64,000 nucleotides of DNA, from positions 558,001 through 622,000 of the forward strand of contig NW_020846747.1 of NCBI RefSeq assembly GCF_003704095.1. Direction: 5' to 3'. The position numbers and the translations under genes were made by a program. This DNA comes from Pocillopora damicornis (Eukaryota). The notes under the pieces were generated by a model, which saw nothing but the letters and a program-made list of their open reading frames with translations, was not told where the DNA came from and ran no database searches. Positions 10,471-63,130 of this stretch are shown piece after piece; positions within the stretch are counted from its first letter, which is position 1; the number at the start of each line of letters is the position of its first letter.

Positions 10471-10489
10471 AGAGAAGATAACAAAAAAT

Positions 10490-11085
10490 ATGAATCCTGA
10501 TAATATTCCATGCAATGCATTAATAGTCGGACCTACAAATTCAGGAAAGTCAAGATACCCGGTCAATCTCTCGAGCACCACCTTCCGAGAAAAGGTCCAT
10601 TACATTGTACTGATTTGTGCAACATTCATCCACAACATTGCATATGATGGCTTCGCAGAAGATGACAAGGACGTAGTTACCTTGACTCCAATCCAAGATC
10701 AGATTGGTGACAGGCTTAAGTTAACAAGTTTTGCGTCTGAGGAAACAAATACACTGATTATTCTCGATGATTGCCCTACTTCCAGAGATGTGAAGTAAAG
10801 GAGGAATGAACTCGAGAATTTAGCATTCAACGCACGACATGAAGGAATCAGCGTTTGGGTCATCATAGAGCAGATGAAAAGCATCGCGACGGCATTCAGA
10901 GAGAGAACACTGCAGCATTAGTTCTCTTCTACACACCATCTTAAGATCATTTCCAGAATTATGCAGGTGAGTTAATGAAATAATAATAAGGAACAATTGG
11001 TAGCAAGGTTAAAGAGTGAGAAGTATTCACATCTCATATTCCCACTTCGCCATCCCTTCAGTATAGATTTTATAATTCAATATAT
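10490..11085 (+). pseudogene. A32/FtsK-HerA family DNA-packaging ATPase
   Basis: Walker A GPTNSGKS (10529-10552), Walker B LIILDD, then after a premature stop ARHEGISVWVIIEQ (Arg-His motif of packaging ATPases). 3' end approximate. Confidence 0.85.
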
Positions 11086-11088
11086 CAA

Positions 11089-11511
11089 ATGGATATGAAT
11101 GGAAAAGAAGCAATCACAGGTGCTATAAGTATTCTAGAAGCTCAACCCAAAATCTCTTCAGATCATCGAGAGCAGCTCGCTGTTCTCGTTGCAAGTGGTA
11201 AAGCGAAGGAAATGATTGGTGAATCTCTCACTCAGGATCAAGTAAAGAAGCTTTCTGAACAAGATGTGGAGAATCATTTTAAGGGATATGAAACTTCAAA
11301 GACTTGAGATGCAATGGTTGATAAACGTCTTCAGCTTTCATGTAATACATTGGCTCATTTTCTCCCTGTTGATGAAGGAAAACTTCTGAAGGACTTGAAC
11401 GAAAACTTAATGGTAAGAGAACTCGGAATGATTGCTAGTGGATTGAGTCTAAACTATGGAAAGTACATGGCAATCGCAAGTGCTGCTCTTCTCACTGTCA
11501 AAAAATGTTGA
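11089..11511 (+). pseudogene. Polinton-associated hypothetical protein split by a stop; hydrophobic C-terminus
   Basis: Two consecutive same-frame ORFs (11089-11307 and 11314-11511) separated by one stop, ending in a hydrophobic stretch (YGKYMAIASAALLT). Confidence 0.5.
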
Positions 11512-11653
11512 AGTACCCTTCAAATCGCCTTCGGTCAATAATGAGGAAATAGACAGTAGTTGTCGAGAAACTGATTAATTTCTTACCAATGACTTGAGAA
11601 AGAACTTGTGTAAGTACTTAATAAGAACTTAAAATTATGTATAAACAAACAAA

Positions 11654-12029
11654 ATGGATAGTAAAAGAACCCAAGACTGAAGAACCCAAGACTGAAGAAG
11701 CACCGGCTCAACAGTGACTTCAACCGTTAACAATAAGACGAAACCAAATAAAGACCCAAGGCGTGTCGAAGCTGGCAAAAAAATTGCTGAACACAACAAG
11801 AGGGAGAGAAAAAAAGAAGAAGAAAGGAAGTTTAAATCAACCAGAACCAGAACCATCATCATCATTCTCACTCACTCATATTCTTTCAGAAGCAAGTGTC
11901 GTTCTCTCACTGGCTATAAAAGAAGAGTTGATGGCTCTCGTTAATAAACAGGCACACCGACAGCAAAACACACAAACACAGATTCCGGTGAGTAAAACAA
12001 ATCGATTGATTTTTTTTCTGTCTACCTAA
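11654..12029 (+). pseudogene. Polinton-associated small basic protein (KDPRRVEAGKK motif), frameshifted
   Basis: Basic helical motif KDPRRVEAGKKIAEHNKRERKK. After a frameshift come PEPEP and a hydrophobic segment. Contains a 15-bp tandem duplication (GAACCCAAGACTGAA x2). Confidence 0.45.
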
Positions 12030-12033
12030 TAAA

Positions 12034-12231
12034 ATGTCTGATAATAAGCTTGTAAAAGCATTGACTAGATTGGCTGCTGGACTCGGATGGGTTGCAAAGA
12101 AAGTCATCAAGGAACCGATGACCTCTGATCCGAGTTCAAATCTCATGAACTATGTGAAGTTCACTGTCGTGATCGCTGCATCAATCGCAACAAGAAGATA
12201 TGTTGAAGAACAAAAGATTTTACCATCTTAA
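12034..12231 (+). CDS. Small (65 aa) predicted membrane-interacting protein of the Polinton-like element
   Basis: Intact ATG-to-stop ORF with an amphipathic N-terminal helix (LVKALTRLAAGLGWVAKKVI) and a hydrophobic helix (YVKFTVVIAASIAT). Confidence 0.55.
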   Translation: MSDNKLVKALTRLAAGLGWVAKKVIKEPMTSDPSSNLMNYVKFTVVIAASIATRRYVEEQKILPS

Positions 12232-12390
12232 AAATATTCAGCCGATTTACAATTAAGTTAGCCGCAGCCTGCGCGATAATCGAGACTGCCTTAATATTCT
12301 ATATCCACGAGACAGAAGAAGAACTCAGTCAAAAGTTTCACGATTAATACTTGTTGTCGATTTTCAAAAATAAAGATGAAGATGAATAAA

Positions 12391-12790
12391 ATGGCAAGCA
12401 TAGCAATAATGATTGGAGGAGCGCTCATCAATGCGACCACCTTAGTTGGTGGAAGCTATCTCGCAAAGTATTTGAGTGGAGACCAGAATATTGTTAAAGA
12501 GAAGAAGAAGAGGCACGATCTTGCTGTGGAGAAGTACCTCCACAGAATTATCAAGAAAATCGAACAAAGGCACTCGATTGGATTGCACTTATGACAAAGT
12601 CACGGAGCAGGCAAGACGAATTTGGTGTACACAGATCATGCTTTGAAGCTGTACAACAAGGCGCATAATCAAGAGCTTGATCTGAGTTTTCCGACTTCTA
12701 CAAGTCAAGTACTTCGCAAAAGCAAGGTGAAATGATCTACGTCGGTGGAATGGCTTTGGATTTAGGAATGGATGTCAGTCGTTTCTGGTG
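12391..12790 (+). pseudogene. Small Gly/Ala-rich hydrophobic protein of the Polinton-like element, frameshifted
   Basis: MASIAIMIGGALINATTLVGGSYLAKYLSG followed by charged coiled-coil-like KEKKKRHDLAVEKY. It continues out of frame towards a second hydrophobic stretch near 12730-12770. Confidence 0.5.
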
Positions 12791-12802
12791 AACTATTTCA
12801 AA

Positions 12803-13610
12803 ATGAAAAGAAAACTTTTAAGAACCGAGTTTAGCCCGAAAGGATTTTGGAAGGGATTGCCAGCTGTGAAGAGGTTGGCTAAAGAAGCCGGGGTGCCTGA
12901 AGATGATACAAAGCTTTGGCTGATGAAGCAAGCCACCTGGCAGATTTATTTGCCTGCACTAAAGCATATCCCGGGACCAACTTTTGGTGTTGTTGATGTT
13001 ACAAGTAGATTCAAGGTCTCAAGAGCTTTTCAGAAAATTTCTAAGCGTGGACCACTGAGATGGCCAAAAGTTCTTCAGGTTGATGTCACGAGAGAGATGA
13101 CAAAGCACGATGTGAGGATAAGAAGAGGGAGTGTGAACAATTCAATCGAACTTTGGGTGAACGCCTCTTCACTTTCCACTACAGTCAAGAGATCAACTTT
13201 AGGGAGGGAAAGAGATCGACAGAATGGGTGAAGAGGCTTTTAGAAGTTGTTTCAGGTTTGAATAGTGAAGTGACCAGGTTGACTGGAAAGAGACCTATCG
13301 ATGCAATCAACGAAAAGTCGGTTCACGCAGAGAGTTAAACCACCTATTCAAGACCTGTTGGCTTGAAAGATAAGAGAAGAGACTCTTCAAAGAATGTGAA
13401 GTACTTCTTTGCAGCTGGTGAGCTGGAAGGTGGTCAAAAAAAGAGCAACAGATCACGTGAGGTCTCTTAAAGTCCACGGTATTGAGGGATCAACTGTGAA
13501 TAAGGGATAGATGTCTACTATCTGAAAGATGGCCCAAAGGGTGGATTCGTTTGAGAAGAGCTTCAGATTTTTCCTCCTGGAACAGAGTTACCTCCTGAAG
13601 GAATTCGTTG
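12803..13610 (+). pseudogene. Retroviral-like (rve) integrase of the Polinton-like element
   Basis: SPKGFWKGLPAVKRLAKEAGV...WLMKQATWQIYLP, VVDVTSRFK, PLRWPKVLQVD, ERLFTFHYSQE...WVKRLLEVVSGLNSEVTRLTGKRPIDA and C-terminal GPKGGFV*EELQIFPPGTELPP. Internal deletions and frameshifts. Confidence 0.85.
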
Positions 13611-14541
13611 ATTTGCGAAAAAAAAATGTTAAAAGATGACCCAATAGACCTAAGCAATCTTGGTGAATCAATTCAAAAAGCTGATAAAGATATACAGTCG
13701 AAAGATCGTCAATCTTGCGAAATACAATTGACAGCGAAGACCCAGGAAACAAGAAATGTGTTGATGAAAATACATAAACAAATCGATTCTATTTCCTTTT
13801 TTCTCAAAGTAAACCCACAGAAATCTCTTCGAGACATTCATCAAAGAAATAGTAAGAAGCTGGTATCACATGGGCCAAAATTCAAACAGTGAAGATTTTC
13901 ATTATAATAAATATAGCGTTACTGCTTATGATCAATCAGGATTGAACAATTATGCAACACAAGAAATAAAATTCCACCCAGAGCGAGAATATCCGCTTCG
14001 AAAAACAATGGAAGACTAAAGGAAGTAAATCAACCGACGTAGCACATTCAGCAGGATTCAAGACAAAAACAAATCCAACAGAAGGTAGAAAGTGGAAAAT
14101 CGTCTTCTGTCACTGGAATTGAGGAAGTGGAGATGATTTTATAAATAAATCTTTCTGGTGTAATGGGAAAAAAACTTGTCAACTTTGCTGCAATAGCATT
14201 AAATACAATTAAATGTATGGGAAAATTTCGAAAAACAGGATAGAGATGATTGTCATGGAGGTCCAAACTCAGAGTGCCACACTCTTCTCGATAACAATGA
14301 CACAATTTTGACAGAAGAACAAATCAAGGCACCACATATGAAGGTACAGCATTGATGCTGATCTTGTCGTATGGCAATCTCATGAAAATATCTGATAAGA
14401 AGCCAAGGAATTAAATCTTTACACAAACAATCTACACCCTTTCAGCGACAAGAGGTTCATTCAATATAACAATATTCACACCCACTTCAGAACTCAAGAG
14501 TAATCCACTGTAAAGAAGGTATGAAATCATTTAAAAATTTT

Positions 14542-32024: not shown

Positions 32025-35000
32025 ATGAAGCCGTCAATGTTGCGTTTCGCGATTGGAATTCTAATTGGACTGCATATAGGTAAGTTTGATTGCAAGATTT
32101 ATCAAGAACAGGATGTGTTCCATGAAAGACGGTATCTTGTGACAGCGATGCCATCAATTCATTTCAATTGTGCAAATAGTTTTCGAGTTTAAATTAAAGT
32201 TTTTTATGGTCAAACAATGCTAAGAAATGGAAAACCGAATAGTATACTACTGCGTATTAGAGAAGAAACGCGACACACGATCTAAATCTTTAAAAAATAT
32301 ATATATAATTAAAAGGGTTCAGTTTCCAAAGAAACTGTAGCGCTACATTTGTGGGGTTATAACATGACAACTTGTCTTTATCAATTGAGTTAAATAAATT
32401 AAATTATTATTTTCATTTTCTATCTATTTCGGATCCGCTCCATTACCAATTTCAAGCCATTTCACACAAATGCATTTAATATTCCCTTTTTTAGCGAATC
32501 ATTATGAAATTGTACTCTTGACTGTTGGAAATAATGGTGACAAGATATACCGTGTGATTGATCTCAAAACTCTTTGTAAGGGACCGATTGCTGGTTCAGC
32601 TGGTTCAATAGCAATACAAATATATTGAAAATGTTTGGCTCTGGCTATAGTTCTGTTTGTCATGACCTTTCAATAGTCCTATAGCAGTAAAATTTAATAT
32701 TGTACCAAGTGATCTTAGTGGAATATGACTTTTGGGGTATTTGATGCACGACTACATGTTGAACACAATTTTCAGTGAAGGATTTTTGTTTTGTGATATC
32801 ATCTGTATGTCGACCATTGACGCTAAGAATAAACCTTATGTTTCACCTATCAAATCGGATATTTCTTCCCAAGCGAGTCACTCAAATTGTATTTTTCCTT
32901 CAGTTTACTGTGTGTAAATAAATGATGATCAGGTATTGAGAGACCCTAGAACACTAGAGACGAATCATTTTGCAACAGAGAGGGAGTAAAATGAAAAAAA
33001 AGGCCTGAATCTTAAGATTTATTTCAACGGTGTTTCTCTACTAGATTCATTTTTCTCAGGCGATAAATAAAGACCAGTCCCTTAAGGTGAATATCTTTTT
33101 ATTTCATGAACGCGCTCAGTGCCGCGGCCTGGCGAAGACCACTTATGAAGCATTGCAACTTATAATAACATGTTTGTTCAACGTTGTATCTTTAGCAGGG
33201 TTTTGTAGAGGAGAAAACGTATCAGTCTATTACCGTGCATCAGGAGTTATTTTAAATCACAACTTCACAAAAGAGTTTTTTACGAAAAATTGCGAGCCGT
33301 GTCGAATTCTTGCTGATGACATCAAAGCTGGGGTAAGTAATGATAAGCTGCTGATTGTTCTTCCAGCTGCACAGAGTAAGATTGAACAAAACACAGTGAA
33401 TTTTCACTCCGAGGCTTAGCACTATATTACGTGTAAAGCATTGTGATTGGGAGAGAGTCAAAGTAAACAAATTTACTTCCAACTTAACGTTCCATTGTGT
33501 AAGTTGTCTCAATGTGAGTGGTGCTTACACAGTAAGCAAATTTCCTTGGAATTTTAAACTCGTCATTTTTCGCTTAGAGTCCCCTTAACCAAGAATTCTG
33601 CAAAATCTTGCTCTAATTTCTTTTTTCGAATGCTGTATTTATCACCTACTTAATTAAATGTTTTCTTTCAAGAATGCTTTCAAGAATGTTGTGACCAAAC
33701 ACTATGCAATCTTCCTATCCATAACCTTCTCGTTTCAGTTCTGGAAAATGTTTGACTTTTTTGTCCAATTCAACCTGTTTGGAGATTCTATGCTTTTAAA
33801 CAAGACATCTAAAGGCATTTTCTTCAGGTAAGACAAATTATAAACTACGTCCCATAATATTACGAGTTCGGTTAGAATCTGAACTCCTGGATGGAATGAA
33901 TTACTGCCACTCGTGCAAAAATGTCTTTAAAAGTCCTCCTCTCTTCTCCCCTGTATGATCTTAGGACAAATAGCGGTATGGACCTTATTCATATGGATAA
34001 TTCGTATGTCTTAAAATTTCTCATTTCATCTTGAAATTTTGATCGTCCAGACTTCCTTCACTTGGTGAGCCGGATATTAATGCAACAGAGAAAGAAGTAC
34101 TTCAACCAGACGAAAACAAAGAAGAAAGGTAATTAAGTATGTTAATTGATTCACTTGTTTCCTTTGACGTTTTGAAAAGCATGTGTTTAATAACGCTAAG
34201 TTACCAAGTTAGGTTGTGATTTTTCATCATTGCAAATGACGATTCTAAAACTAATGCTCGTTTCACGACATGAATTAATAAATCATTGCTTGTTTCACAA
34301 GCTTAGCACTTTGACCCCTAAAAATGACTAGAATCTAGTTTCTCCTTGAATCAAACATTAAGAATTAAGATAATGAGAATAAAGAAAATGATCACTAAGT
34401 TAAAAGCTCCTAATTGTTAAAACAATTCCCCTCGTCAGTACCTTGGGAAATAGTAGAGAACAGTGTGGAGAATATACATACTGATATTAGGGAGTAATGG
34501 GTTTACTAGATTACCTCATAACCTAAAGAAGACCACTAGTTTGCGGTCAAAAGATCGCGAGACAAACGATACTTCATTAAAATGCATTTGATGTTCATAA
34601 CTTGTCTCTTTTAGCGGGGTCTACTTCATCATGGTGATGCGAGTGGAAGTAAACATGACTGACCCGTCCAAAGATTTTCCCGTACTTAAAGAACGAATAC
34701 GGAATGCTTGTTGGCAGTACCTTAGATTGGTAGTGCATTTCCAACTTTTATCCACAGTTTGGCTAAACAAAACAGGCTTCGTTTTCAAGGTGGGAACATC
34801 ATCTATACCATTCTTCAATTGATGTAATCCTTATATAACGTTAACCTATGACATTTCATCTTTGTTAAGAGCATTCTGAAGGGTACCTATTTAGGCAAGG
34901 CACAGTCTCAAGGTTCTTGAGAAGCAACTTATTGCTCCTCTCTGGACTATACACTGACAAGAAAATATTTGTTCTTACCGCCTAGGAGCTCTCCGAAACC

Positions 35001-37565
35001 CAAGTGACGAACTATCTGGATCTTCTCAAGACGAAACATAATTTTGAATCAAAGATACTTTTGCGAAAAAGCGATGACATCCCAGAGAGTCACCAGAATG
35101 CGCTGTCAATCATTTCTTACGTTGGATGTACTTTATCTATTTTGGGGCTGTTTTTCACGATTTTAACCATCACCCTCTCAAGGTAAAAAGGATCAAGAGA
35201 CTATGAATCAAAGAGATTCCTATTACAGACCTGCTTCCTTTTTATTTGATTTTAACCTCAAGAAAGGGTAATATCCCCATAATGTCCTAAACGAGCATTG
35301 TTATAAAATAGCGATTAATGAGTTGGAATGAGGCTTAAGGCTACTGTAAAAAAAAGCGTGAAGCCTGCACGGTGTTCAAGCACATTTCTGAGAGTATTAG
35401 TTGTTTGTAAGAAAAGGGGTCTTAAGTAATCTGATTGTATTAAACAAACTCAGGCAGTTGAGTACAAGGACGTCCATCCCCGAGAAAAGCTGTAACCAGA
35501 CACGTGTCAAATCACGATAGTTTTTTTTATGTGTGTTTCGTATCGCCAATCAGTTGCTGACAAGTCACTAACCCTTTGCGCCATTCTGTCGGGTTGACGT
35601 TTGAATGGCAAAGCATTCGCCATTCTCAATCCAAAGTCGTTCATTAATAAAGTTTCCTTTTCTTGTCAGTAAAGGTCCATGGTGCTTATATGATAAAAAA
35701 AAAAATAATGCATGTTTTCCTTTAGAATGTTCACTATATAGTTCCCTCAACCCTTATTTCTCATGACTTTCGATCTTCTTCGACAGGAAGCTTCGTCGCC
35801 TTCGCCAAAACCAAATACTAGCGTATTTGTGTGTGTCCCTCCTGGCCGCCATATTGCTGTTTACATTTGGTATCAACGGCATGACAGGCTCAGACTCACT
35901 GGACGTTTGTAAAGCCATGGCAGCCCTTCTTCATTATTTCCTACTCTCCTCTATTGTCTGGATGAGTATCGAGGCATACAACATGTATCAAGACCTGGTC
36001 AAAGTGTTTGACACCACATTTATTTCACAAAATGAGTTCATGTGCAGGGCGGGAGTGGTGGGATGGAGTACGTAAACTTTGCTTTGTCATATTTAATGAG
36101 CCAAAATCTCGCAAATCCTTAGTATATGAGCCCTTGAGGTAAAGAGAAACAAAGAAAAAGAAGAGGGAGACAAAGAGGTCGAAACGATATCAATTAGGAA
36201 CATGAGGAATATAGATGAGATGAACCTGGTTTTTCTCTATTAGATTTCGAAGAGCGATGACAGAATTTTTTAGATGAAAAGAAGGTTTCTGAAAGTCTGT
36301 ATCAGATGTAATCTGCATTGCCATTTTTATTTTAGGTGATTTTTTTTATTACCTTTGCCGTCTTCACATTTGTAAATAATTTAAAGTTGTTGTTGTCCAA
36401 ACTAATAATTTTTTTTTGTGATATAAACGCTTTAATGGCGCTTATTTATTTGTACCAAAGATTTTCAATCAATTCTTGCATTTCAAAGGTCTTTTCTTTA
36501 TTGTTTTGTCTCTTTGCAGTTATTCCTGCCATGATTGTGGTGATAACTGTATTGGCTGAACCTCAGTCCTACGGCTTCCACGTCATGGACAAGAATAACG
36601 AAACGCTGTAAGTAAAACATTTATATCAGCAGACGATTTATAACCACGATATGATGTGTGATCACTCCTGCTTAGCTAATGTGAAACGAAACAAAAATAT
36701 TACAACCATTTCCTTCGGATTATTTCTACACATTACCGTCCATGTAGTTTTGTAAGAAAGGAAATACTTTGCCAATTATTTCACCATTCCTATCAAAATA
36801 AAGCAATGGTTTGGAATTGAAAAAAATACATATCCCAACAGAATTAAAAGCTATAGTTCACGATAACATCACGATCGAAAGCAAGGCAAATTAAGACCTG
36901 CGATATATAATTTCGAGGAAAAAACCTTTACAAACTCGTCTCTAAATCATATTAGTTCATATTAGTTCATATTAGTTCATATTAATTGAAAGCAACCATA
37001 TGGAATCAACGAGTTTGCTTGTCTCCATTTCAGTTGCTGGATGGACGCAGACGCATTCTACGGCGCATTCCTTGCCCCAGTCCTCCTCTTGATGGCTGTC
37101 AACGCTTTCATTTTCCTCGCAGTTATGAAGGAAATCTACAACATCCCTCACATGTGTGAGAAGAACAACCGTCTGTCGCACTTCCGTGCTACGGTGTCCG
37201 TGTTTTTCCTCCTCGGTCTCAACTGGTTATTCGCCGGTTTAGCTGCCACTGTTGGAACATTGGTGTTCCATTACTTGTTCACGATCACATGTTCGTTTCA
37301 AGGTTTCGTCATTTTCCTCCTACATGGAATCCTTAAAAAGGATTTTCAGGAGGCTTGGCACGTGCTCACAGCGAAAAACCGCGTCATGGAGATGATTCGC
37401 AGCAGCAGCTTTGCCACACCGATGTCCAAGACCGTGAGCGTGTCGTCCCAGTCCACTACATTTGGGGTAAAAGAACGTGCTAATCCCATCACGCTGAATG
37501 GCTCAACAGTCGGGGAGTCTGGGATTCAAATTCAAGTTAATACCAGTGTAATTATCTCGTCTTAG
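32025..37565 (+). CDS. Adhesion-GPCR-type (class B2) 7TM receptor with SEA-like ectodomain and no GAIN/GPS, ~542 aa, 9 coding exons
   Basis: Phase-consistent GT-AG model: 32025-32079, 33199-33332, 33739-33827, 34051-34128, 34615-34789, 34986-35182, 35787-36067, 36520-36607, 37034-37565 (1629 nt). Signal peptide MKPSMLRFAIGILIGLHIGFCRG. aGPCR signatures: TM1 ALSIISYVGCTLSILGL, TM3 CKAMAALLHYFLLSSIVWMSIEAYNMY, TM4 GWIIPAMIV, ECL2 CW, TM6 LLGLNWLF, TM7 SFQGFVIFLLH. The exon 5 donor could alternatively be 34729. Confidence 0.9.
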
Positions 37566-40790: not shown

Positions 40791-43700
40791 ATGGAAGATG
40801 AGGACGGTATATATGGTATGGTGCAGTTCAACTTTACAATCTTTGTTTGTATTGTGTTTTGTCGATTTTCATATACACTAGCAACTATACCCCATGGCAC
40901 TCTTTCCTTCCATAGCCTCTCTGTTCAAAACCTGGTACTTTAAATTTATGAGTAAGGAGACTTTCCATTGAAGAGATTCGCATTTTTCCTGCAAAACAAC
41001 GAAGGAAACTTGTTAGCTAAGTTCAAGGGCAGACCAGGTGCCCGTTTGCTCGAACAAGTGCAAAATCGAAATTGTGAATTTATCAGAAATGTTCCCGTGC
41101 AATGAGTTCGTATCACGATGCAACATTCATACCATGACTAGTTTCGTTGAATATGCGCACGCATGCTTCTTTCCTCTCTTTTTCTGATGTACATTATTGC
41201 CTGTCTAAGGAAAGGGATTGTCGTCTCCATAACAACATCCTGTTCTCTTGCAGACATTGTCAGGCAGCTTGTGGCTGTATCCCCAAAGATGACGCAATAT
41301 GACGTAAGGCACAATTGAACAGATAACTATTAAAAAGAAGTATTTGGATCATTTTAAGACGCCTCATAAATTTTCGAATTTATCCGTTCATATATACCAT
41401 TTGGCCGACAATTAAAGGAAAGTGTTCCATTTGTCCTAAATGCTTAGTTTCTTTAAACCAATCCATTGGTAATTTATCATTTTGTTTACAGTCAAAAGAA
41501 AGTGTCATCTTTGTCTTTAATAAACCTCTTCTTGCCGATGGTGGACCTTACGAGGCCGAGTTCAAAGGTCAACACCACTGCCTCAGAGTACCTGCAGTGT
41601 TACTGAACAGCTGTACACTTCAGGCGCATGCACCAGGTAAAGTTCCTTGCTGATGTTCGTGGAGATGATATGATAAGATAAAACTTTTGTTACTTTCGCG
41701 ACCAAGCCCAGGGAATTGCAAGTAAACTAAGCGATAATTATGGAAAATTTTAATCAAGAAGTCGATTCACTCAGAAAAACATGCAGGGAAATAGAAGAAC
41801 AGAGAAGAGGAAACCCTGATTTACTGGGGGGAGATATTGGTACAGACAAATGTTCATCGCAACATTACTTTAAATGTCTCATTGGGTTCTATCTAATCAA
41901 GCCAAAGATATCAAACCAAAGTTATTAGAACCAAAATCGATCCAGTACTACTTTCAACACTCAACTAAAAATTTTTTGCTTAAGTCTACGGCCATTTTCT
42001 CTCAAAATATCAACAAGTTATTGTTATTTTTCAATTCTGTTGCAGTCTATTATCCCCCAGAAACCACGACTGTTAGCATTTACGACAAACTAAAACAGCA
42101 TGAACCCTCTATCGCTCGTTGCTCTTTTGAGTTTTTCGCTCGAGGTCAACTCCTTCAGGAATTATTAGAAAAAGCAAGTGATCCAGATATGCTACTTTGT
42201 GATTCTCTTGGAGTTTCTTCAACTGATCTCAAAACGTTTGACGACGTTATTGCCGGAAAACTGAAGGAGAAAGCTCCTGAAGGATTCAATCTGCTCAAGA
42301 TGGCGCAAGAAAGAGGTTGGTTTGGTTTTTATAATTGTAACAAGCTGGTTTGTCGAAGCATATTAATCAGATATGTGATGAAATAATTTTCTAGCAACGT
42401 GTAAACTTTTCCTCTGTCATCGTCGCTTGTTTCCTTTGCAAAGTTTCCTAGAGAGTTTAAGACCCTATCCATTTTTTCTTATCTCTCCTCAGGTCCTCCT
42501 GTGTCAAATACTAGGTTCCCAACTCTACTTCACCTTGGTGCGACTTACGGACTAACATTAACTGTAGCAGCGTGCCTGCACTACTGCCCAGCGGCACACC
42601 AGGCATGCTTGCTCAAGAATGTAGACGGCAACACACCCATTGAAATATCTCGAAAACTTGGAAGCCACGAAATAACGAAGTGTCTTCAAGATTTCCAGGT
42701 AACCAGTAAAATTTTGGACAAAGAGTTGATAATGAATGATCTAATGGTTATAACATGCATACTTCGATCATCTATAACTGGACAACGTTCTGCTTGCAAA
42801 TGGTTAGACGTATTTCTGAACATTTTTCCTTTCTTTGGAAGGAGGATTATCAATTTTACCCTTTCTTTCATAAGAAAAGAATTTCTCCTGTTCCCTTCAA
42901 TAAGGACAGCAAAACTTTTTGCAATAGTACCGGGGATACTTGTTCATGTGACAAAGAGTGCACAGCACGAAAAATCTCGTTTAACTTAACGTATACAGGG
43001 CAAAATTGCAGGTAAAAAAATTGAAACCACAAATTTTTATTTTTGATCTTGATTATGAGATATAAATAAAATTGGCAGCCAAGTAAGACCTTCAAGGAGA
43101 AACAATTTTTTAAGTTCCTCGTTTGTAATCCAACTCCATTCATATTTCAGGCTAACTGTGCCTATATTCTAACAGAAGATTTCGTCAATTTACACCGTAA
43201 GAGTTAGCATGAAAGAGGATTCTCTTGAGTGACCACAGAATCTGTCAATTCTGTTTCGTTTCCTTTCAGTCAAACAAACGTTTCCTTAAAAATAACAATC
43301 AGCTCGGAAAAGAGGGAGTTTTTAGTGATAATGACGAAAATGAAGACATTTACATGGAGATGCGTCCAAGCATGGCTCTAGATAAAATTGATGGAGAGCA
43401 TGACTATGTAAGGATGCCAGAAATTGGAACCAACACAAACCGTGAGTAAACATTAGGAAAAAAGATGACCAACTTTCAATCGAGTATCTAATAAGACGAG
43501 GCGGAAAAGAAGAAGGTTTTTAATTCTTGTCACTAGCGAGAGACATAGAAAAATTATGAGTCCTCATAGGCAATCGAACCTCAGACCTTCGGATTCCGCG
43601 CTCTAATGCTCTGCCACTGAGCCCCAGAGACTCTATGATAAGTTGGGTCAACTTGAGTATGTTCATACGTTGGTTTTAAATTTTTGCGTTAATTCGTTCT

Positions 43701-53285: not shown

Positions 53286-54955
53286 GATAAACAAAGTAAG
53301 GTGTAAGCAAACATGACTTTGAGTTTACTGAAGTTTAATTAACTTTATGGATACAAGCTGTAGTCAATTAATCTAGTGTTTAAAATAGTGGTAAGATTGA
53401 GCTCGCAGCAAGATGAATTCTTCGTTTTTTTTTTTGTTTTTTTTTTTGCTATTAGCGATGGACTCTTGAATTGAAAAAGCAGGCCAAAGAGCTTTAGTGT
53501 TTTTTGTTTTTTGTTGTTTATTTCAGTTTAGCATTTCATTATTGTCTTGAACCTACGGTCTCCTTAAACGCTACCCCCCCCCCCCCCCTCCCCTTGACGA
53601 GTTAATTTCTGCAACGTTTATCGTGACAGAATCTCTTTTGCGTGACACTTAAAGCCCTATAGTGCTTGTAGTTGGATAGAATTGAGACAAGGAAGGTGTC
53701 TGATCTTTGCCAGAACATAGTCCTTGATACATAACAAAATATACACAATATACAGTCATAATATGTAATTGCTTCGAAATCTTTTTCAAGCTAACGGGGC
53801 TCACAATCAGTTCTAACGGGCTTTTAAAGAACCACACGGCTAAAAATAGTTGGCCAGTTTCAGGTTCCTTAAACGCGTATGTCAGTTTTCTAAACCCAGC
53901 TTAGATGGGATACTTTATGCGACAATAATTACCTGTTAAAGCTACTGCTACAAATTGTTAATGAGGCGGGTAATAGCAACGTGTTATAATTGGTTCCTTT
54001 TGAATCAAAAGTCTCTCTGATATTGATCAACCATGTACTCGGCACTCAGAAGTCTCAGATCAAATCCCGAGAGACGAAAATCATCATAATATTTCAGTAA
54101 TCAAAACCAAATATTCTACAGTCAAGCGTAGAGTCACGTGGTCTACTTCATCGCTCAGCAGATGAGGCATCAACAACCGTGCCTGCTCAGGGTAAAGATT
54201 TCTGGCCATAATAATCTTACCAAAACTTCAGAGTCGAAAATCAAATTATTCTCAGATTAAAATAGCACTCGCCTCAAAGGATAATCGTAGATAATATGTT
54301 GCTTAATTCGATTTGATGCTAAAATGAAATTCAGTACTCACAAGATCTCTAAAGCTTAAAACTGTTTACATGTACTAGCTGTTGTAAAAAATATTGTAGT
54401 TCATCGAGGTGTTATAGATTAATAAATCGCTTGTCTCTCGGTGCAAGACTCTAGGCTAATCAATTTTATATATGTTGTATACACCTGTTTTCAAAAACAT
54501 TGCGATTTGAAAATATATATGAAATATATACACCTTTTCTTTTTCATTAAAAAAGGTGTCGACAGAATAAATAGTGATTATGGGGACAATTTTTCAAAAG
54601 GAAAGTGCCATAGCTGCGGCCAAAATTTCCAAAGTCTTTGTTTCACCATCGAGCAATAACAAAAAAGGTATTGCTCCTTCGATGTGAAATATAGGTGCAT
54701 CGTCCATCACCTTTTAAGCGAGAAAAGAAAAGGTCTATATATAAACTTATATTTTCAAATTGAAAACAGATGTATATACTAGCCATGTCTAGAAAATCAC
54801 CTTTAATATTTCATCTACTTTTCTAAGACGAGAAAATTGAATTGGTCGCTATTTTTCTCAACCGTAATAAAGGGTTTAATCTATATTTCTAGATAAAGAG
54901 AACTCCCTATCAGAACTCAGCAATATATATTTCTTTCCAAGGCTATCGATTCACT

Positions 54956-57900
54956 TCATGAGTCTTCATTAGCCCCTTCAGTTATACTTCTGTTTGTGGC
55001 AGCACCCGGTCCAGCCTCTAGAAAACTGAATCATTTAAAACGTTTAGTTAATTACTACTTTTTAAAAAACATTTTTGCTTGATGTGAGAAAGGTCAACCA
55101 GCGAACAACAAGCTTTATTTTCTGCGATTATTGAGGAAGCAGGAGAATGGGAACAAAGGATAATAAATAAGTCTTTTTTTACAGGAACACACAGGAGGCC
55201 CAAGCTCCAGCTTAGCGATAATCATCTTGCGAAATAAGAGTCATGTCGAAATCATAACAGTTTGTATGGGAATATCCACGACCGCTCTTAGGAATAAAAA
55301 AAATACAGTCAAATTCTAAATAAAAATACCTCACCTTACTTCCACAATGCATCGCTTGTTATCTGACCACTTACTTTGTTGAAAAGAACCCATTTAAGCG
55401 AGTTGTCCATTTCTAGGTTTACTACATAAAAGAAGCCCAAGGCTGCACAACGCCCGACCCGAGAAGTGAAAAATCCAAGCTCAAAATGACCGGGCGGCCC
55501 AACACAGAACCCAAGTACACATATTGTAGTTTCATTACAATTCGCTATCAACTCAATCCTCCCCGTGAAACCGACGCTAAGCCGCACTTAGCACCCGTGG
55601 TTTTAAAACAGTTTATTGATGCCAAGTGACGGTGTGGTCCCCGGCGAGGCACAGTTGGTCGCGTCAAAGTAACATCGACCAGAAGGGCTCACGGCTTAGT
55701 TAGCAAAGGAGGCAGGGTTACCAAGCTGGTTTATAAGGGTCGTGTGTCGTGGTGAATATGTACTGCGGCTTAGCGTCGGCTTCACGGGGAAGATTGAGTT
55801 TGTAGTAAATCTAAATGAAACTGCAGTTTATGCGCTTGGGTTCTGCGTTGGATTTGAGGTCGCCCGGTAATTTTGAGCTTGGATTTTTCGCTTGCGGAAA
55901 TGGAGTGCGCAGCCTTGGGCTTCTCGTATGAGTAGTAAACCTAGAAATGGATGACCTTTTTTTTATTCCTATGAGAGGTCGTTTATACTCCCATACAAAC
56001 TTTTAAAATTTCATCATGACTCTTATTTCGCAAGATGATCATCGCATAGTTGGAGCTTGGGCCGCCTGTGAGGAACATAACCATTATCAGACCACCAAGA
56101 GGAACAATACAAAGGATGGTTTCAGATATTTCTCTTCTAAAAGCAACAAAAACAATGCACTTTCTCCCGTTACCTAGACTGCAGTTACTTTTGTCTCAGT
56201 TCTATAAAATAATGAAGGTGAAGAGTAACTAACAGCCCCGATAAACCTTAATTAGTTAAAAATGCCAGGTCGCCGGTTAATCATATAATTTTACCGTTTA
56301 TGGTCGGTGGTTGAATCAAAGAGCTTAAATGTGAGTATCTCAGTACACTCAATAAAATTGGGTGAATGAAGTTGAGAGGAAAAATAGAAGACAGAGTACT
56401 TACTGCTACAAATTAAAACATAAGGATAATGAACTAATAACTGGTAACTTCCTTCTTATTATTATTCCTTCCCTTATTAGCAGTAAATTTCTGATCCACT
56501 ACACTCAGCACAATTATTGAATATTGCACCACTGTGCAAGTGTACATACCGCTGTACTGCAGATGAAGGTGCTTGAACGTTTAGACTTGGGTTCTCTCCA
56601 GCCACACAAACGTGACCCTCCATGTTGACAGTGTGATTAAAATAGTTATTAACGTTTATTACTGAAATAAAGTATCAATGACACGAAATTGTTAGTCCGT
56701 ATACGCATTGAAATCGTTGTACACTATTCAACACCACACTGCAAATAGCTCGCTGATCAGTTGAAACATTCTGATTAAGGGTGCGTTCCCCTTAGCAGCA
56801 AATCCATTGTCAGATCATTGCTACATTGATTCCACTCTGGACAGGGATTTATCAGATTACTGATCTTGAGGGATCTGAAAACGGATCATTGGGTGATCTC
56901 GGATCAAAATCACTAATCTTAATCCTTCCAAAAGAACGTATCCCAAGGATGCGTTCCTTTGGGAGGTTACGGATTAGGATTTTGTGATCCAAGATCACAC
57001 AGATCACGGTGCATGAAAGGAACGTAGCTGATCTGATAAACAGTTACCATGACAGCAGGCGCGAAATCGTAGAGCGCGTCAGCGGAATCGCAAGCTAAAT
57101 TTAAAAACAAAACAATGGCCTTCCTCTGTAGAGCAGCTGTTGTTTCGTTCATAGAGGAACTTGCCGATGATTCAATACCGCAAGAAGCAAGAAGTTGTGA
57201 AGATGAAGAATTTCTATCGTTTCTTTTGATAACTAGTAGGGAGATGCAGAGCCATGGCCCCATTGAGAATTATTTGAAACGTATCATACAACTTTACATT
57301 GTTTTAGACTTTCGATGTCATTTTCGAATGTCACCTGTTTGAAATGCCAGTTAGCTACTTCCCTTGGTCTGCCTCATGGACAAAGGAATAGGGGAAGACC
57401 TACCATTGACTTATAGAAGCAAGTATTGATTACGATATGGATACTTGGGAACCCTGAGTGCCTGCGATCAGTGGCCGATCGATTCAACATTACATAATAA
57501 AGTGTATTTCTTGTTTATAGCAGAATTTGTGGAGTGATTGCCAACAATCTTTCTGGTCAATATATGAAGTACCTACTTGTTTGAATTGAGTACCGCCGGG
57601 CAAAATGATTAATTTCGGATCCTTCGCCCAGAGGAACGCGTTGAGTCTGTGATTCAATAATCTTGGGTATTCAAATCGCGCAGATCAGTGATACGATAAA
57701 ATCCTTGTGCAGAGTGGATTTGATAAATCACTAATCTGACAATGGATTTGCTCCAAAGGAACGCCACTGATCAAAAAAATTGAACCAAAGGAACGCACCC
57801 TAAGATTAATTTAAAATCTCTAAAAACATACCCGTTGGCATTGTTGTCGACGGCGGGAAAGGAATCAGTTCAGCACTTGATGAGCCAGTCATGAAGTTGC

Positions 57901-60900
57901 TGCCACTGTTGTGGTTATCCGCAAAGCGCTCGCTTGTTCCTGATAAAAGTGACGATTCCCTCACCGCTGGTTGATCAGACTCATCTAAAGCGATATACAG
58001 TGCAGTTTGGTATTTTTGGTTATTCATTGAATCTAACAAATGTTTAAGTAATTAAAACAGTATATTTGAAATGAGTTGAAAAATGATTAATCTCATTTTA
58101 TATAGCATTATTTAGCTTACAAGAAGAGGATACAGTGCAAAGATTTCTAGATTGGAGATTTCCCACGAAGGAAATTAGGTAGTTTTATGTCTCTGATTTC
58201 TTAGTATGCGTTCATCATATCAGCCATTTTATGTCACAATAATAGGTTAACAGTATAGACTTGAAGACCAGCAAAGTTATTTTTACAAAATATTTTTTTC
58301 TCAACCTGTTATTTCCAAATTTTGTTGAGCTTCGGGAGATGAATATCCAAGCGGCTGAGGCTCAAAACTATTGCTTTCAACTTCTATGGTCCCTGATCCC
58401 CATCTGTGAATCAAACGTAGTCTGACGTCTGTCCCTGCTCTGGCGACGTTCACAAGTTTGAGGCTGGTTTCCTTAATTTCTGTTTGTTCTGAGAAGATCT
58501 GCAAATATTCCAGAGCCTTGCTGATGTCGTCTTTCTGCGTAGAATATAGAGTAACTTGAAGGTTGCCTGAGTCTCCGTCAGTTTCACTTTTGAATGAGAC
58601 TGGAAAAGAAGTAATGGGAGCATTTTCAACAACCTCACTTCTTGACTCAGGAAGGACGATCACTGCTTCAAATGCTCCAATTGTAAGAAGATGTCCTCCA
58701 ATGTGAACATGCGCAGTGGCCTCAAGTTGCAATATTTCCTCGCTTTCTTTGATCATCCAAAAGAGCTGAGAATATATTTCTTTCGACATATCGTACTTTA
58801 TGTCATCTCTTGTCTGTTTGTTGATCGAGTTAGTTGGATCCTTTAGTTCAAATTGCACAAGGTGTGATGGATCAAACTTGGCGAACTTCAGCAAACTTAC
58901 TGCAACATTATGGAAATCACGTAAGAAGCTTCCCTCAAAATCTGTAGGGTTTTTTATGATGTCTCTCAAAGAGACGGAAAACAAATCCAATCTTTTGTAT
59001 AATCTACGTGCTTCAGTGCTTTGAAAGAACCCTTCCAGAAATTCCAACATGTCACCCATCATAACACCACTACCCCATCTTTGTATCCGCGATTCTTCTT
59101 GTCGGTCATCGTTGTTGTTGTTTCGACACAGAATCTCGAGAATGTAGCACACCTCATTCAGAAGTTTGAAAATATTATTTTCATGAGCAGCACCTTGAAT
59201 GACTGAAGTAACGTTTTGGAGAGTTGCTTCCTCTGTTACTCCTCTTAATCCACTCGGTGTTCGTTGAATTTTTTCCTCTCGGAAGATTTCTTTAATGGCT
59301 TGGATGAACTCAGAAACAATGCATAGGAAACTGCTTGTAATGAATTCATCCTCTTGAGATGAGAACATATGCGTGCACATCTTTCCAACGCTCTCGGGTA
59401 GTCGCCTTTTCATCACAAGAACAGAGGCAAAATTCTCTGTTTGAGTTGCTGATTCCACCTCTCCTTTGGAGGTTGCGTTCTCAATACAGCAGTCTCTCAA
59501 AACTGCGCTACAAAGCATCTCTACTTCGCGACCAAAATATTTCATAAGGTCAGAATCCTGATGTCTTAAACCTGCGATTTTAAATGCCAGGTCTCTCAAG
59601 TGTTCAATGTGCATTTGCCCCCTCTCTTTCACCTTAAATTCTAAAGAAATATAGAGAAATTAAGTGACTGTTACTTGAATAGAACAAAATAGTGATCATG
59701 GTTCTTATCCGAAATCCTCTGTCCCCAACATTTGACTCGATGAGTAGGACACCTGACCACGTAGCTCAAGTCTTGGAACGGACCAACAATAAAACGAGCG
59801 AGGAGAATATGCCCCACAAGTTTGCAATAACATCTGAAAACAGTTAGACGGTCTAATTTTCTCGGATAAGGTAAAATAAACCATGTGCTTTGACTCCTTC
59901 ATATTTGCCGTAATGGTCTGTGAAGTGCCTAGTGTTCTGGTCTTTTTGTGTTTCCGAAATTGGGAAATGTTGTTAAAAGACAAAATTGGCATCTAGCAAA
60001 GAATTTTCATTACAGGTGATTTTTGACTTACTTGAACGTGAAAATAAATGGAAATAACATATTTGCATAAGCCATTCAGTAGACATTATAATAGGCCAGT
60101 TGATCATTCCTATTCCTTTTGGCAGTCTTATCTTACAGGTAGAGTTTGGTTTTTGTTTTTGCGTAAACTGCGGTTTGCGGCTAGATATCGGTATATTTTC
60201 ATTATGTTGCTAAAAAATAATTAATTACTGAGAAAATGACTCTACCCTATAAAAGTTGATCCCGTACAGGAATTTCCTGGAAATAACCCTCCTTTATAAT
60301 TTTATCCATTTAATACCTTCTTTTTTAGGCTAAATCTATGTCGAATTCCAGATCAGGAAAATAGTTTTCAGTTTATAATTTAGCACGCTCGACACCTGTT
60401 TTCTTGGAGGTGATTTAAAATGTAAACATATGGTACTTTTCCTCTTCTGCACTGAATTTGTAATTGGATAACTTATACGACTAGCACGTAGCTCTTTTAG
60501 AGGCGGTACCTTGGGTACGCCCTTTCTCCTCCGAATTTTGTTTTTATTCTGCTGTTATGCAACAGCCTTCAAGGACTATTTTCTTTTAAGATATCTTTCA
60601 AGTGCGATTTTAATTCTGTTACTAAGTTTACTATAATTTTTATATTTTCAATCTTGTTTTTGTTTTGCCCGAACTTGACCGTAAGACCAAGAAATTTAAG
60701 CCAGAAAGACATTTCGTAAAGCGTAAACATCGCGAAGGTATCCACTTAGTATGCGAACTCCGTTCTGCGTAGCCCAACGTGATTCGTTATTTAAGTGTAA
60801 AAATATGACGGAGGTTAGAGATTGACCGCTCGGTAAGTGTCACCTTTATAAGCGGTGACCCACACTTCCCTCGAGAGATCAGAGCTAGTCCCCGTTGCAA

Positions 60901-63130
60901 TACTTGCGTAATAAAAGAGAGAATAAAATATATAGTCAACTGAACGACGAGTGTCAGGAAATCCTTTCTAACACTTCTTTCTTTTTTCAAATGCGAATAC
61001 TGGCTTTTCACCAAGAATTCAAACAGAATGTGAATTTTCCTCGGGAGGTAGCAAATTTATCTGTGCCATGGAAAGATAAAAACTTCCATTTTTATCATGA
61101 TAAACGACCTCTTAGTCGCACTCAGACCATCGTCTATACACGTAGTCGGAGAGAAGAGACTTACCTTCAGGTTCTAGCTCCTCAAGGGCTCTTTTTAGAT
61201 TGTTCGGATTTGCTGCATCCCCATGCTTTTCCCTCCAGTGTTGTATTGCAAGTTCCAGTTGTTCTTCCTCTCCTTGCCAACATGCAACAACTTGTTGCTG
61301 AGTTTCAACGGGTAATTCGAGCTTTTGAGCTACGGACTTAACGTCGAAAATTGCCCTCTTCACAGCAAGAACGTGTCTCACGTAGCCACACAGATCTGCA
61401 ATTAAAGTTTTTTTTTTTCATCATGAAATAAGCATGCCCATTTAATCTACAGTTTTTTGTTTGAGATCATAGGAGATTCTTTTTTATCGAAAGCTTTTTT
61501 GTAGCAGGACTTATAATTAAACTTAATAAGATTGTAAGAGGCCACACATTCGCAAGTATATGGGCCAAAACAGCTCAAATTTAAAAATTCACTCGAATTA
61601 CTGCAGAAGCTCACCTTGTTGGCAAAACTTGTTCTCGCGAACGTGCCCATATTCGCCTTTCACAAGGATCTTTCCATAAAAAATTTTGGAATTCGCGTTA
61701 GAAACTTGTAAAGGTAATTTGATCACATGTCCAGCATTCCACCAAGCAGTAGAATCCACCACAACTTTAAAGCATTCTTGCTGGTTATTTGCCGGTTTGT
61801 AATCCTCCCCGAGTTGAATTGAGATTGTTAAGATTTCCTTGTTGTAAATGCAGTTTTTTTCCTGTGAATTTCTACAGTCAATAGAAAGTTCTTCGAATCC
61901 ATCTTTTTTGAGCCGCATTATGGCATAATCATCATGATCTCTGTAGTACTCCTCCTGGTACGTGTCTTGGCTCATGAACGCAAGGGCAAGCTCGTCAAAG
62001 GGGCATTGTTGCCGATTACTCTTGAGGAGGACAGACAACTTGTAGTTGAAGGGCATGAGGTTCAGTCGGGTCACAATTTCTTTAGTGCGTACCCATGTTA
62101 ACCTCGCCAGAACAGCAATCAATGAAAAATGACTGACCTTAACTTTTAGTTCCTTCGTTTCAAAATCAAATTTGGACTTATCAGTGATGTCCTCCCAATT
62201 TGGCTTTTGGCTTTGACCGGTCCGAGTTCCATGTAAGACGAGGAGATCACCATGTGAATTCGCTCTTTTGCCGTTCAATGTGACCTCCACAGTGATATGG
62301 GTTTTGAATTTCTGGTCATTAGGTTGACAGTTGACAATAGGAGCAACAAATATCAAATCGTTCTGGAGACCACAACGAGCAATTAGGTAACAGTACCCGT
62401 AAGGTTCCTCCAAAGTAAGTTGGATGGTGACAGGATCTTTCACGGCTCCAGGAGGAAATGTCAAGGTAACGCCTTTTACACTCAGTGATGCTCCATTACT
62501 GGTTACGATTTTAGAAGCTGTGGCATCTTTGTTGTTTTCATCTAAAAAACAAAATAAAATGCTGGGCATCCTGTCTCAAGAAAGTCCAACGCGTACACAA
62601 AAATAACCTCGCTAACTTGCGATTTGATGCCACTTAAGTAGTTTTGAATCATAATCCGATGAACTGAATAACAAATTCGGTTAACTTTCGTTTCTCAGAC
62701 GAGGAGATGAATAAAAAGTATGAAAAAAAGGATCGACTCGGTCGCGGTTGTTGAAAGGTGGATAACGCTACCCACTAGATAATTTTCTATCCGGTGGATA
62801 GCGCAGTGTCTTTTGTTAACCTCCGTTGGATAGCGCCATCTGCCCTTTGAACAAATGGGCCTAAGTCTCTAAAAGTTACATCCTGAAAAATAGACATAAC
62901 TGACTTCCCGCTCAACTTAGCGACTGAGCTTCCCTAATTATTCTTTCTTGAAGGGAGGAGGGTAGCATCTAGATGATAATACATCCTAGTCTGAAGGACT
63001 TTGCTGAAGCCAGTTTTCGTCTGGTTACCTTTTCCAGGAGTCAATTCTCTATGATTCCTTTTTATCATGGGGGGTTCAACAGTGGTGGATACGTCATCGT
63101 AAATTTCTTCCATGGCAAGATATCCTTCCT
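54956..63130 (-). CDS. ZU5-UPA-death-domain protein (PIDD/UNC5CL-like) with N-terminal Tyr motifs, a large unassigned region and a RHIM-like tail; 5' end probably outside the window
   Basis: Model (minus): 63130-63029, 62541-61615, 61395-61165, 59640-58306, 57984-57832, 56661-56550, 55025-54956, all GT-AG and phase-consistent. ZU5: IVTSNGASLSVKGVTLTFPPGAV...VAPIVNCQP...F...ITV...NWEDIT...VSHFS. A UPA-like beta region follows. Death-fold exon: VAQKLELP...EEQLELAIQHWREKHGDAANPNNLKRALEEL. Confidence 0.82.
55190..56070. mobile_element. P-element-superfamily MITE (881 bp) in the last intron of the ZU5 gene
   Basis: Termini CACAGG...CCTGTG fit the CANRG consensus. Long imperfect inverted arms (55190-~55300 vs ~55955-56070 and ~55405-55585 vs ~55765-55950). 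Perfect 7-bp TSD AGGAACA at 55183-55189 and 56071-56077. Confidence 0.8.
56779..57800 (+). mobile_element. PIF/Harbinger deletion derivative with transposase remnant
   Basis: TIR GGGTGCGTTCC/GGAACGCACCC with TAA on both sides. Internal remnants DFRCHFRMS and GRPTIDL*KQVLITIWILGNPECLRSVADRF are typical of the HARBI1-type transposase N-terminus. Confidence 0.85.

Follow-up and report, generated by a model that had tools for sequence, protein, structure and literature searches.

A putative self-cleaving ZU5–death-domain gene with predicted 5' exons from its neighbour at a three-gene locus of the coral Pocillopora damicornis

We analysed a stretch of 64,000 nucleotides from the stony coral Pocillopora damicornis (assembly GCF_003704095.1, contig NW_020846747.1, positions 558,001 to 622,000 of the forward strand), hereafter the window, which holds three separately spliced, transcribed genes: a BCAP-like adaptor gene on the plus strand, a short tyrosine-motif adaptor gene on the minus strand and, also on the minus strand, a gene encoding a ZU5 domain, a UPA domain and a death domain (DD). 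An earlier description made from the letters alone (the sequence-only reading) had taken them for a compact cluster of lymphocyte-type phosphotyrosine adaptors wired to a death-domain protein, and all the motifs it named, together with the BCAP-like start codon, were located in the sequence where it had placed them. The three transcribed genes are real, and their models agree with RNA in assembled, unstranded contigs of four runs from four studies, out of 23 runs listed: the BCAP-like gene has GT..AG joints, the minus-strand short gene has CT..AC joints, and in two of the four runs contigs carry the ZU5 exon and the exon following the DD 231 nt apart, which is the length of the DD exon. With moderate confidence we read the locus as three spliced genes, of which the ZU5 gene has predicted 5' exons derived from its neighbour and would encode a self-cleaving sensor with a swappable N-terminus, and the BCAP-like gene is a plain neighbour. 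The two minus-strand genes, with one exon copy beyond the window end, comprise the following features:

G000:C3382:624422-624212, minus strand: open copy of the short adaptor's main exon with an ATG, predicted start of a 1046-amino-acid (aa) protein
63029..63130, minus strand: YLAM/YDDV exon of the ZU5 gene (YLAM at 63122, YDDV at 63101)
61615..62541, minus strand: ZU5-UPA exon with an HF/S motif after ZU5 (Pfam ZU5, E 1.4e-8, over the cut-off)
61165..61395, minus strand: death-domain exon, weak (Pfam Death, E 0.0011, 19.4 bits, cut-off 22.6)
58306..59640, minus strand: 445-aa post-DD exon, two helical bundles and then a ferredoxin/KH-like domain
53590..57984, minus strand: tail exons and 3' untranslated region (UTR) of the ZU5 gene (exons 57984-57832, 56661-56550 and 55025 to the stop at 54956; canonical splice model)
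52924..53180 (upper end approximate), minus strand: non-coding first exon of the short adaptor (RNA joint 52924>51478)
48901..51465, minus strand: short tyrosine-motif adaptor, 219 aa (coding exons 51465-50928, 50310-50224 and 48935-48901; GT-AG model without stops)

The label "ZU5-UPA-DD" given to the third gene holds for its ZU5 domain and, by fold model, for its UPA domain, with no match on the gene to the Pfam UPA models; it is less secure for the DD, and it leaves out the 445-aa region after the DD and the upstream exons beyond the window. The model of the ZU5-UPA exon (predicted local distance difference test, pLDDT, 79.7) matches in Foldseek the ZU5-ZU5-UPA-DD of ankyrin-B (E 1.2e-13), UNC5b (2.6e-11) and NLRP1 (2.8e-6), and the alignments to ankyrin-B and UNC5b span 311-330 columns. 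The post-DD region is conserved, and its low-confidence model (pLDDT 56.7) reaches VIA Z scores of 8.1-10.7: the top six VIA matches are HEPN-type or related helical domains both for aa 5-125 (Z 9.3-10.7) and for aa 133-260 (Z 8.1-8.8), and aa 320-393 resemble KH, PII and ferredoxin-like folds (Z ~8), with TRADD-N not among the 50 matches listed. For the same region Foldseek gave nothing at E<=0.001, Pfam gave only TPR_AP5Z1, under its cut-off, and the best ESM Atlas value (0.81) lies in the chance range; in the alignment the R-x4-6-H catalytic motif of HEPN domains is absent, the second bundle carrying RDIxxN and the first having no conserved motif at the expected place. RNA contigs reach the 3' end of the gene at 53588-53646 in three runs. 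Two inverted-repeat elements lie in its introns (55190-56070 and 56783-57764), the latter enclosing a decayed frame that we take to be transposase-like.

The ZU5 cassette is present in three copies in the genome, among 17 ZU5 matches, and in database models one and the same cassette carries variable N-termini. It is preceded by an adaptor module in a Stylophora model (P0001) and an Oculina model (P0006), by a whole MyD88-like DD and TIR in P0169 of Oculina patagonica (E 9e-25 to the MyD88 TIR), by a GBP GTPase in P0009 of the same species, by a coiled coil in P0030 and, in P0026, by a domain with no PDB match; the MyD88/TIR and GBP fusions are each found in two annotation sets. The copy at C2336 (L011:2147-8350; G000:C2336:362147-368350, minus strand) is a stop-free chain of seven exons with AG/GT ends, 1429 aa long and predicted to be NLR-like, with the order DED-NB-ARC-TPR-linker-ZU5-UPA-DD followed by the post-DD region seen in the window gene. 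In a 14-row cassette tree, sister cassettes (100/100) differ in their N-termini; no rows were dropped, 5 of the 11 inner branches are open, P0002 and P0011 are without the ZU5 start, and the N-terminus of P0169 was left in before trimming. HFS is present in the window cassette, and across the family xFS occurs in 14/14 cassettes and HFS in four. A second cassette on the plus strand, 16 kb beyond the window (G000:C3382:638331-642430, L005-L006), is divergent from the first, has GFS instead of HFS and is preceded by short S/T-rich candidate exons. The Stylophora protein P0001 (XP_022805470.1) is listed in a skeletal proteome table, so that protein has been detected; this row was the sole match to an accession that we found in the literature, in the part of PMC7115838 that holds the table.

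UNC5CL, one of the ZU5-death-domain proteins named in the sequence-only reading, has an N-terminal membrane anchor. The coral protein resembles PIDD1, UNC5CL, the cytoplasmic part of UNC5 and ankyrin in having a ZU5-UPA fold and then a death-like domain, with HF/S as in PIDD, which according to passages of PMC3210808 cleaves itself at HF/S after ZU5. It differs from all four in that its N-terminus varies among paralogues and a 445-aa HEPN-like/ferredoxin-like region follows the DD, and from PIDD1 also in having one ZU5 domain and no LRR match, whereas PIDD1 has LRRs, two ZU5 domains and the DD last. A second likeness is to the FIIND tripwire sensors CARD8 and NLRP1: CARD8 consists of a disordered N-terminus, ZU5, UPA and a death fold, and degradation of the N-terminus frees the C-terminus (passages of PMC9213247). 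In the coral family, too, ZU5, an F/S site, UPA and a death fold come after an N-terminus that is disordered or of NLR type, and one paralogue is predicted as STAND-TPR-ZU5-UPA-DD; in contrast to CARD8 and NLRP1, the family has a DD instead of a CARD and an extra C-terminal region. A third likeness is to the cnidarian expansions of TRADD-N proteins, in which constant death-fold cores have variable GBP, TPR, HEPN and ZU5-UPA flanks (parts of PMC8195603), and of NLRs, in which ZU5 and DD occur with NACHT (parts of PMC8260672): the coral family shows in its gene models the same lineage-specific shuffling with GBP, TPR, HEPN-like and ZU5-UPA parts and would have captured whole immune genes, but its cassette has only three copies in the genome. 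Six accessions of the cassette family were not found in 12 of the 13 supplement files of PMC8195603, and a search that lay outside subscription papers and bioRxiv supplements found no published description of the cassette family or of the three-gene cluster.

The ZU5 protein may well be a self-cleaving protein of the CARD8/PIDD type, judging by these analogies, and the gene family is likely one of self-cleaving death-fold proteins with swappable N-termini, of which the window gene captured its neighbour's exons, and not part of a lymphocyte-type module. The protein would run from a disordered or folded N-terminal module through ZU5, F/S cleavage and UPA-DD to a HEPN-like scaffold, and the swappable N-terminus would serve as a sensor or docking handle. 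Were that N-terminus modified or degraded, the UPA-DD-HEPN-like half would be released, oligomerise and signal, as in CARD8 and NLRP1; in the window copy, the module taken from the neighbour would meet that neighbour's SH3/SH2 partners, kinases or attackers. We infer self-cleavage at HF/S, a CARD8/NLRP1-like release of the C-terminus and an immune role.

The predicted origin of the 5' exons can be followed in the DNA, and like the gene structures and the motifs the homology of these exons is directly observed. The YLAM/YDDV exon and the tyrosine exon of the short adaptor are identical at 29/40 DNA positions (0/1000 shuffles; 3/2000 for the protein), with YLAM standing opposite YDDT. Just past the end of the window there are two copies of the tyrosine exon that have lost their tyrosines and two copies of the adaptor's main exon, one frameshifted and the other the open copy, a proline exon whose likeness to the main exon was equalled in 0/2000 shuffles. 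Together with the tyrosine exon and six more exons, this open copy gives a 1046-aa frame with AG/GT ends and fitting phases. A non-coding flank is duplicated as well (52025-52162 against ~64040-64180, 82%), and the adaptor's main exon has four matches in the genome, all of them at this locus within a span of 16 kb. A similar open proline exon exists as P0060. Above the ZU5 exon, RNA contigs continue for 488, 491 and 677 nt, and this upstream sequence fits the borrowed exons without identifying them. The YLAM/YDDV exon and the upstream proline exon are drifted duplicates of the neighbour's exons.

For the tyrosine motifs of the ZU5 gene this has a direct consequence. The sequence-only reading had noted YLAM and YDDV on the death-domain protein, had proposed a link to phosphoinositide 3-kinase (PI3K) and cell death for the locus, and had named failed conservation of the ADAP-like and ZU5 tyrosine motifs in orthologues as an outcome that would refute it. 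For the ZU5 gene this is the outcome in Stylophora: the exon that corresponds there carries neither YxxM nor YDDV. At least one YxxM arises in a ZU5-cassette protein in 766-767/2000 shuffles (38%), and YLAM is within chance and aligned to the neighbour's YDDT, so that we rejected it as a PI3K site; the motifs of the short protein, YDDV and YE[AC]V, did prove to be conserved. Because local duplication explains the tyrosine motifs of the ZU5 gene, they provide no independent third sign of wiring.

A somewhat unlikely alternative account is that the ZU5 gene came to lie next to the short adaptor, that local duplication then copied adaptor exons ahead of it as neutral debris, now decaying or tolerated, and that the three genes are independent. 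The frameshifted main-exon copy and the tyrosine-less copies would follow from such decay, the motifs are not conserved in the Stylophora ZU5 genes, both Pocillopora GenBank models begin at the ZU5 exon, and the gene spacing is ordinary. What speaks for capture instead is that the proline exon is open, has an ATG and fits in phase into the 1046-aa frame, with its counterpart in P0060, that adaptor modules precede ZU5 in the Stylophora and Oculina models, and that the RNA contigs go on for 488-677 nt upstream of the ZU5 exon. Several further points weigh against a borrowed N-terminus on a self-cleaving sensor: in the four RNA runs no joint was seen that leads into the ZU5 exon from either the tyrosine exon or the proline exon upstream of it; at other loci the fusions come from gene models, and model P0018 shows that models can merge neighbours; P0006 is just one model; 10/14 cassettes lack the histidine of HFS; the DD stays under its Pfam cut-off; and the HEPN-like Z scores are within the range that helical bundles can reach by common arrangement. 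The three-gene order kept in Stylophora would also be expected of a functional cluster.

The donor of the predicted 5' exons, the short adaptor, starts with a helix and LKR, followed by two SVxSxRxxFEQ repeats, a proline motif, YEDT (50302), YDDT (50281) and YDDV (50260), and ends with YEAV (48915) directly before the stop, all on the minus strand; by composition only, it is a low-complexity protein with 22% order-promoting residues, rich in K, P, S and D. Its joint 52924>51478 was found in 3/4 RNA runs, with up to 255 letters on the upstream-exon side, and 219-aa Logan proteins fall in its cluster. YDDV is kept in 5/6 and the terminal YE[AC]V in 6/6 full-length proteins, and three Y[DE][DE][VTILP] motifs were reached in 0/2000 shuffles. 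A metagenome scan gave three loci, whose length of 1.3-2.5 kb leaves no space for neighbouring genes; two of them are spliced stand-alone short adaptors. Other corals have at least two paralogous types (L029, L031; P0050-P0058), both spliced as stand-alone genes, and the proline motif is present twice in P0055 and P0063.

This protein had been called ADAP/FYB-like, a label that we do not retain. Passages of PMC8290198 define ADAP by an unstructured N-terminus, a proline-rich region, two hSH3 domains, FPPPP and tyrosine motifs. The coral protein shares with the ADAP/FYB1 family (FYB1, ARAP/FYB2, PRAM1) a low-complexity N-terminus and YDDV-type tyrosines, but it is 219 aa long, ends with YE[AC]V and is without two of these hallmarks: Pfam finds no domain on P0019 and no hSH3 in 15 family members, FPPPP is absent from the six short proteins checked, and no named FYB is among 14 profile matches in 1.84 billion proteins at a limit of E 0.001, below which a short motif could lie. 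Thirteen of the 14 matches were looked up, P0062 (a repeat protein) being left out; two are named clusters (Montipora, Porites), short stony-coral proteins in which YDDV is kept, and 11 are without names, and all 13 are <=319 aa, many of them single-exon calls, which cannot show later exons. A gap of N at 48977-49183 is intronic, and hSH3 exons hidden in it are ruled out, as the RNA joints skip the gap. ADAP orthology was rejected, the PDB profile search giving three rows, all at E>0.8, and ESM Atlas no usable match. The proline motif is the most conserved block of the family and may resemble the SKAP-binding stretch of ADAP (340-364). The short adaptor is likely to work like the docking half of ADAP, with membership in that family not established.

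On the other side of the short adaptor, tail to tail with it, lies the BCAP-like gene, with these features:

40791..47479, plus strand: TIR-less BCAP/BANK/Dof-family adaptor, 512 aa, 13 coding exons
43351..43416, plus strand: tandem YxxM pair, predicted p85 SH2 sites (YMEM at 43351, YVRM at 43405)
47480..48900, no strand: gap between the two stops, nearly all of it covered by RNA contigs

From its ATG at 40791 the protein has an acidic N-terminal tyrosine, a DBB domain (aa 17-157), an ankyrin-like stretch (160-232), YMEM and YVRM, and a proline-rich tail. The named protein P0036 matches the window frames exactly at 510/512 residues, in 13 pieces; further copies from Pocillopora and Logan reach 97-98% identity, transcript-sized Logan proteins match the gene, and three of its GT..AG joints are seen in RNA. 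Its description as a BCAP/BANK-like DBB-ankyrin adaptor with two YxxM motifs is sound for the DBB (Pfam E 1.7e-11, 44.6 bits, cut-off 22.2) and for the YxxM pair, 18-19 aa apart and kept in 6/6 full-length homologues examined, including those of Stylophora and Orbicella, down to 54% identity; two YxxM were reached in 32/2000 shuffles. The ankyrin-like stretch is weak, with ankyrin chains at E 0.0014-0.015 over aa 157-232 and Ank_2 under cut-off in P0024. The likeness stops short of the TIR: the DBB begins at residue 17 in P0036 and in the two homologues P0024 and P0016, so that there is no room for an N-terminal TIR, Pfam finds no TIR in these three, and no TIR_3 match in the genome is over cut-off. 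A micro-exon (40791-40815) opens the gene with the acidic tyrosine motif YDIV (YDQV, YDEI and YDEV in homologues), in the place of the TIR of vertebrate BCAP.

According to passages of PMC6937578, the YxxM sites of BCAP bind the SH2 domains of p85, p85 prefers sites in tandem at a spacing of 10-30 aa, and Dof, the BCAP orthologue of Drosophila, couples FGF signalling. The coral protein shares with BCAP (PIK3AP1), BANK1 and Dof the DBB, the ankyrin-like stretch, the closely spaced YxxM pair and the proline-rich tail; it differs in its length of 512 aa, in starting with the acidic tyrosine micro-exon without an N-terminal TIR, and in having a second DBB gene in the genome. In Stylophora, the orthologue already bears the annotation PI3K adapter protein 1. 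Recruitment of p85 by the YxxM pair is a fair expectation from the sequence, and we would further expect Src/Syk-type phosphorylation and Nck/SLP-76-type SH2 domains at YDDV. A TLR link, which the sequence-only reading names for BCAP, is not supported for the coral protein, which lacks the TIR through which BCAP is connected with TLR adaptors.

The kinship with Dof, together with the absent TIR, suggests a different role, in which the two adaptors would serve growth-factor receptor and actin signalling and not immunity, with a Dof-like DBB protein and actin-binding motifs in the short protein. In the alignment the short protein starts with a helix and LK[RK] and has two SVxxxRxxFE repeats, both of which may resemble actin-binding motifs. 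We think this improbable: 15/15 short-adaptor members are without a Pfam WH2 match, and the immune-type N-termini of the ZU5 cassette would be left unexplained.

Linkage of the three genes is seen beyond this assembly. Stylophora has them on one 187,365-base record under consecutive accessions, PFX16103/4/5 and LOC111342641/2/3, which represent ZU5, ZU5 plus the short gene, and the BCAP-like gene; in P. meandrina, BCAP-like and ZU5 accessions are six apart on one record; and in Oculina four cassettes lie at tags G023786-G023795, one fused to an adaptor module. Gene tags of P. damicornis may not be independent of the window. The linkage of the short adaptor with the ZU5 gene is due to the duplication itself, and since the BCAP-like gene is convergent to the other two there is no shared promoter.

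These data bear on the role first proposed for the locus, that of a co-regulated module of immunity or allorecognition whose three proteins, all phosphorylated by Syk/Src, would connect PI3K with cell death. The consecutive Stylophora accessions, the conservation of the motifs of both adaptors beyond chance and the mere ~400 bases that RNA contigs leave between the 3' end of the ZU5 gene and the first exon of the short adaptor would suit it. We nevertheless find it quite improbable, given the missing hSH3, FPPPP and TIR, the unconserved YLAM, the convergent orientation, a linkage of all three genes seen so far within one coral family (Pocilloporidae), and a second DBB-ankyrin gene on another contig, C3822 (L021:7352-9961; 5' end not found), with eight YxxM in one exon. 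In all likelihood the BCAP-like gene has simply been a neighbour for a long time and is not a co-regulated partner.

Nor is the locus unusually dense. The stops of the BCAP-like gene (47477-9) and the short adaptor (48901-3) are 1.42 kb apart, in agreement with the ~1.4 kb first given, and the stretch between them, with unstranded RNA contigs and a repeat at 47905-47978, is likely made up of the 3' UTRs of both genes, abutting or overlapping near 47950-47985. With 20-27 thousand genes in a coral genome of 234 Mb, three genes per ~25 kb is an average density, and the cluster is therefore not confirmed as compact. We rejected a read-through transcript that would run from ZU5 on into the short gene, the arrangement of model P0018, there being no such joint among the 15 joints listed of 79. 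Elsewhere in the window, a secretin/adhesion-type G-protein-coupled receptor with 7tm_2 matches (34985-37565, plus strand) ends ~3.2 kb upstream of the BCAP-like start, and broken reading frames at 9000-14000 resemble a Polinton/adintovirus-type element, one of them with a weak A32 packaging ATPase match under cut-off.

The short adaptor and the TIR-less BCAP-type gene each offer a concrete handle on SH2 signalling in corals, the former as an undescribed stony-coral family of tyrosine-motif proteins of 200-250 aa. A bolder and, in our view, unlikely extension of the capture reading is that self-cleaving ZU5-UPA-DD-HEPN-like sensors of stony corals capture copies of the animal's signalling proteins, namely MyD88, GBP, a STAND-TPR receptor and a phosphotyrosine adaptor, and carry them as bait at the N-terminus; they would be an animal counterpart of the integrated-decoy NLRs of plants, with the tripwire chemistry of CARD8 and NLRP1, and the locus would be a capture in progress beside its donor gene. 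Should the copied exons be debris, nothing more than an unremarkable row of signalling genes is left here. Should the borrowed N-termini be baits, corals would protect the proteins of their immune signalling as plants do, and this locus would show how such sensors arise from neighbouring genes.

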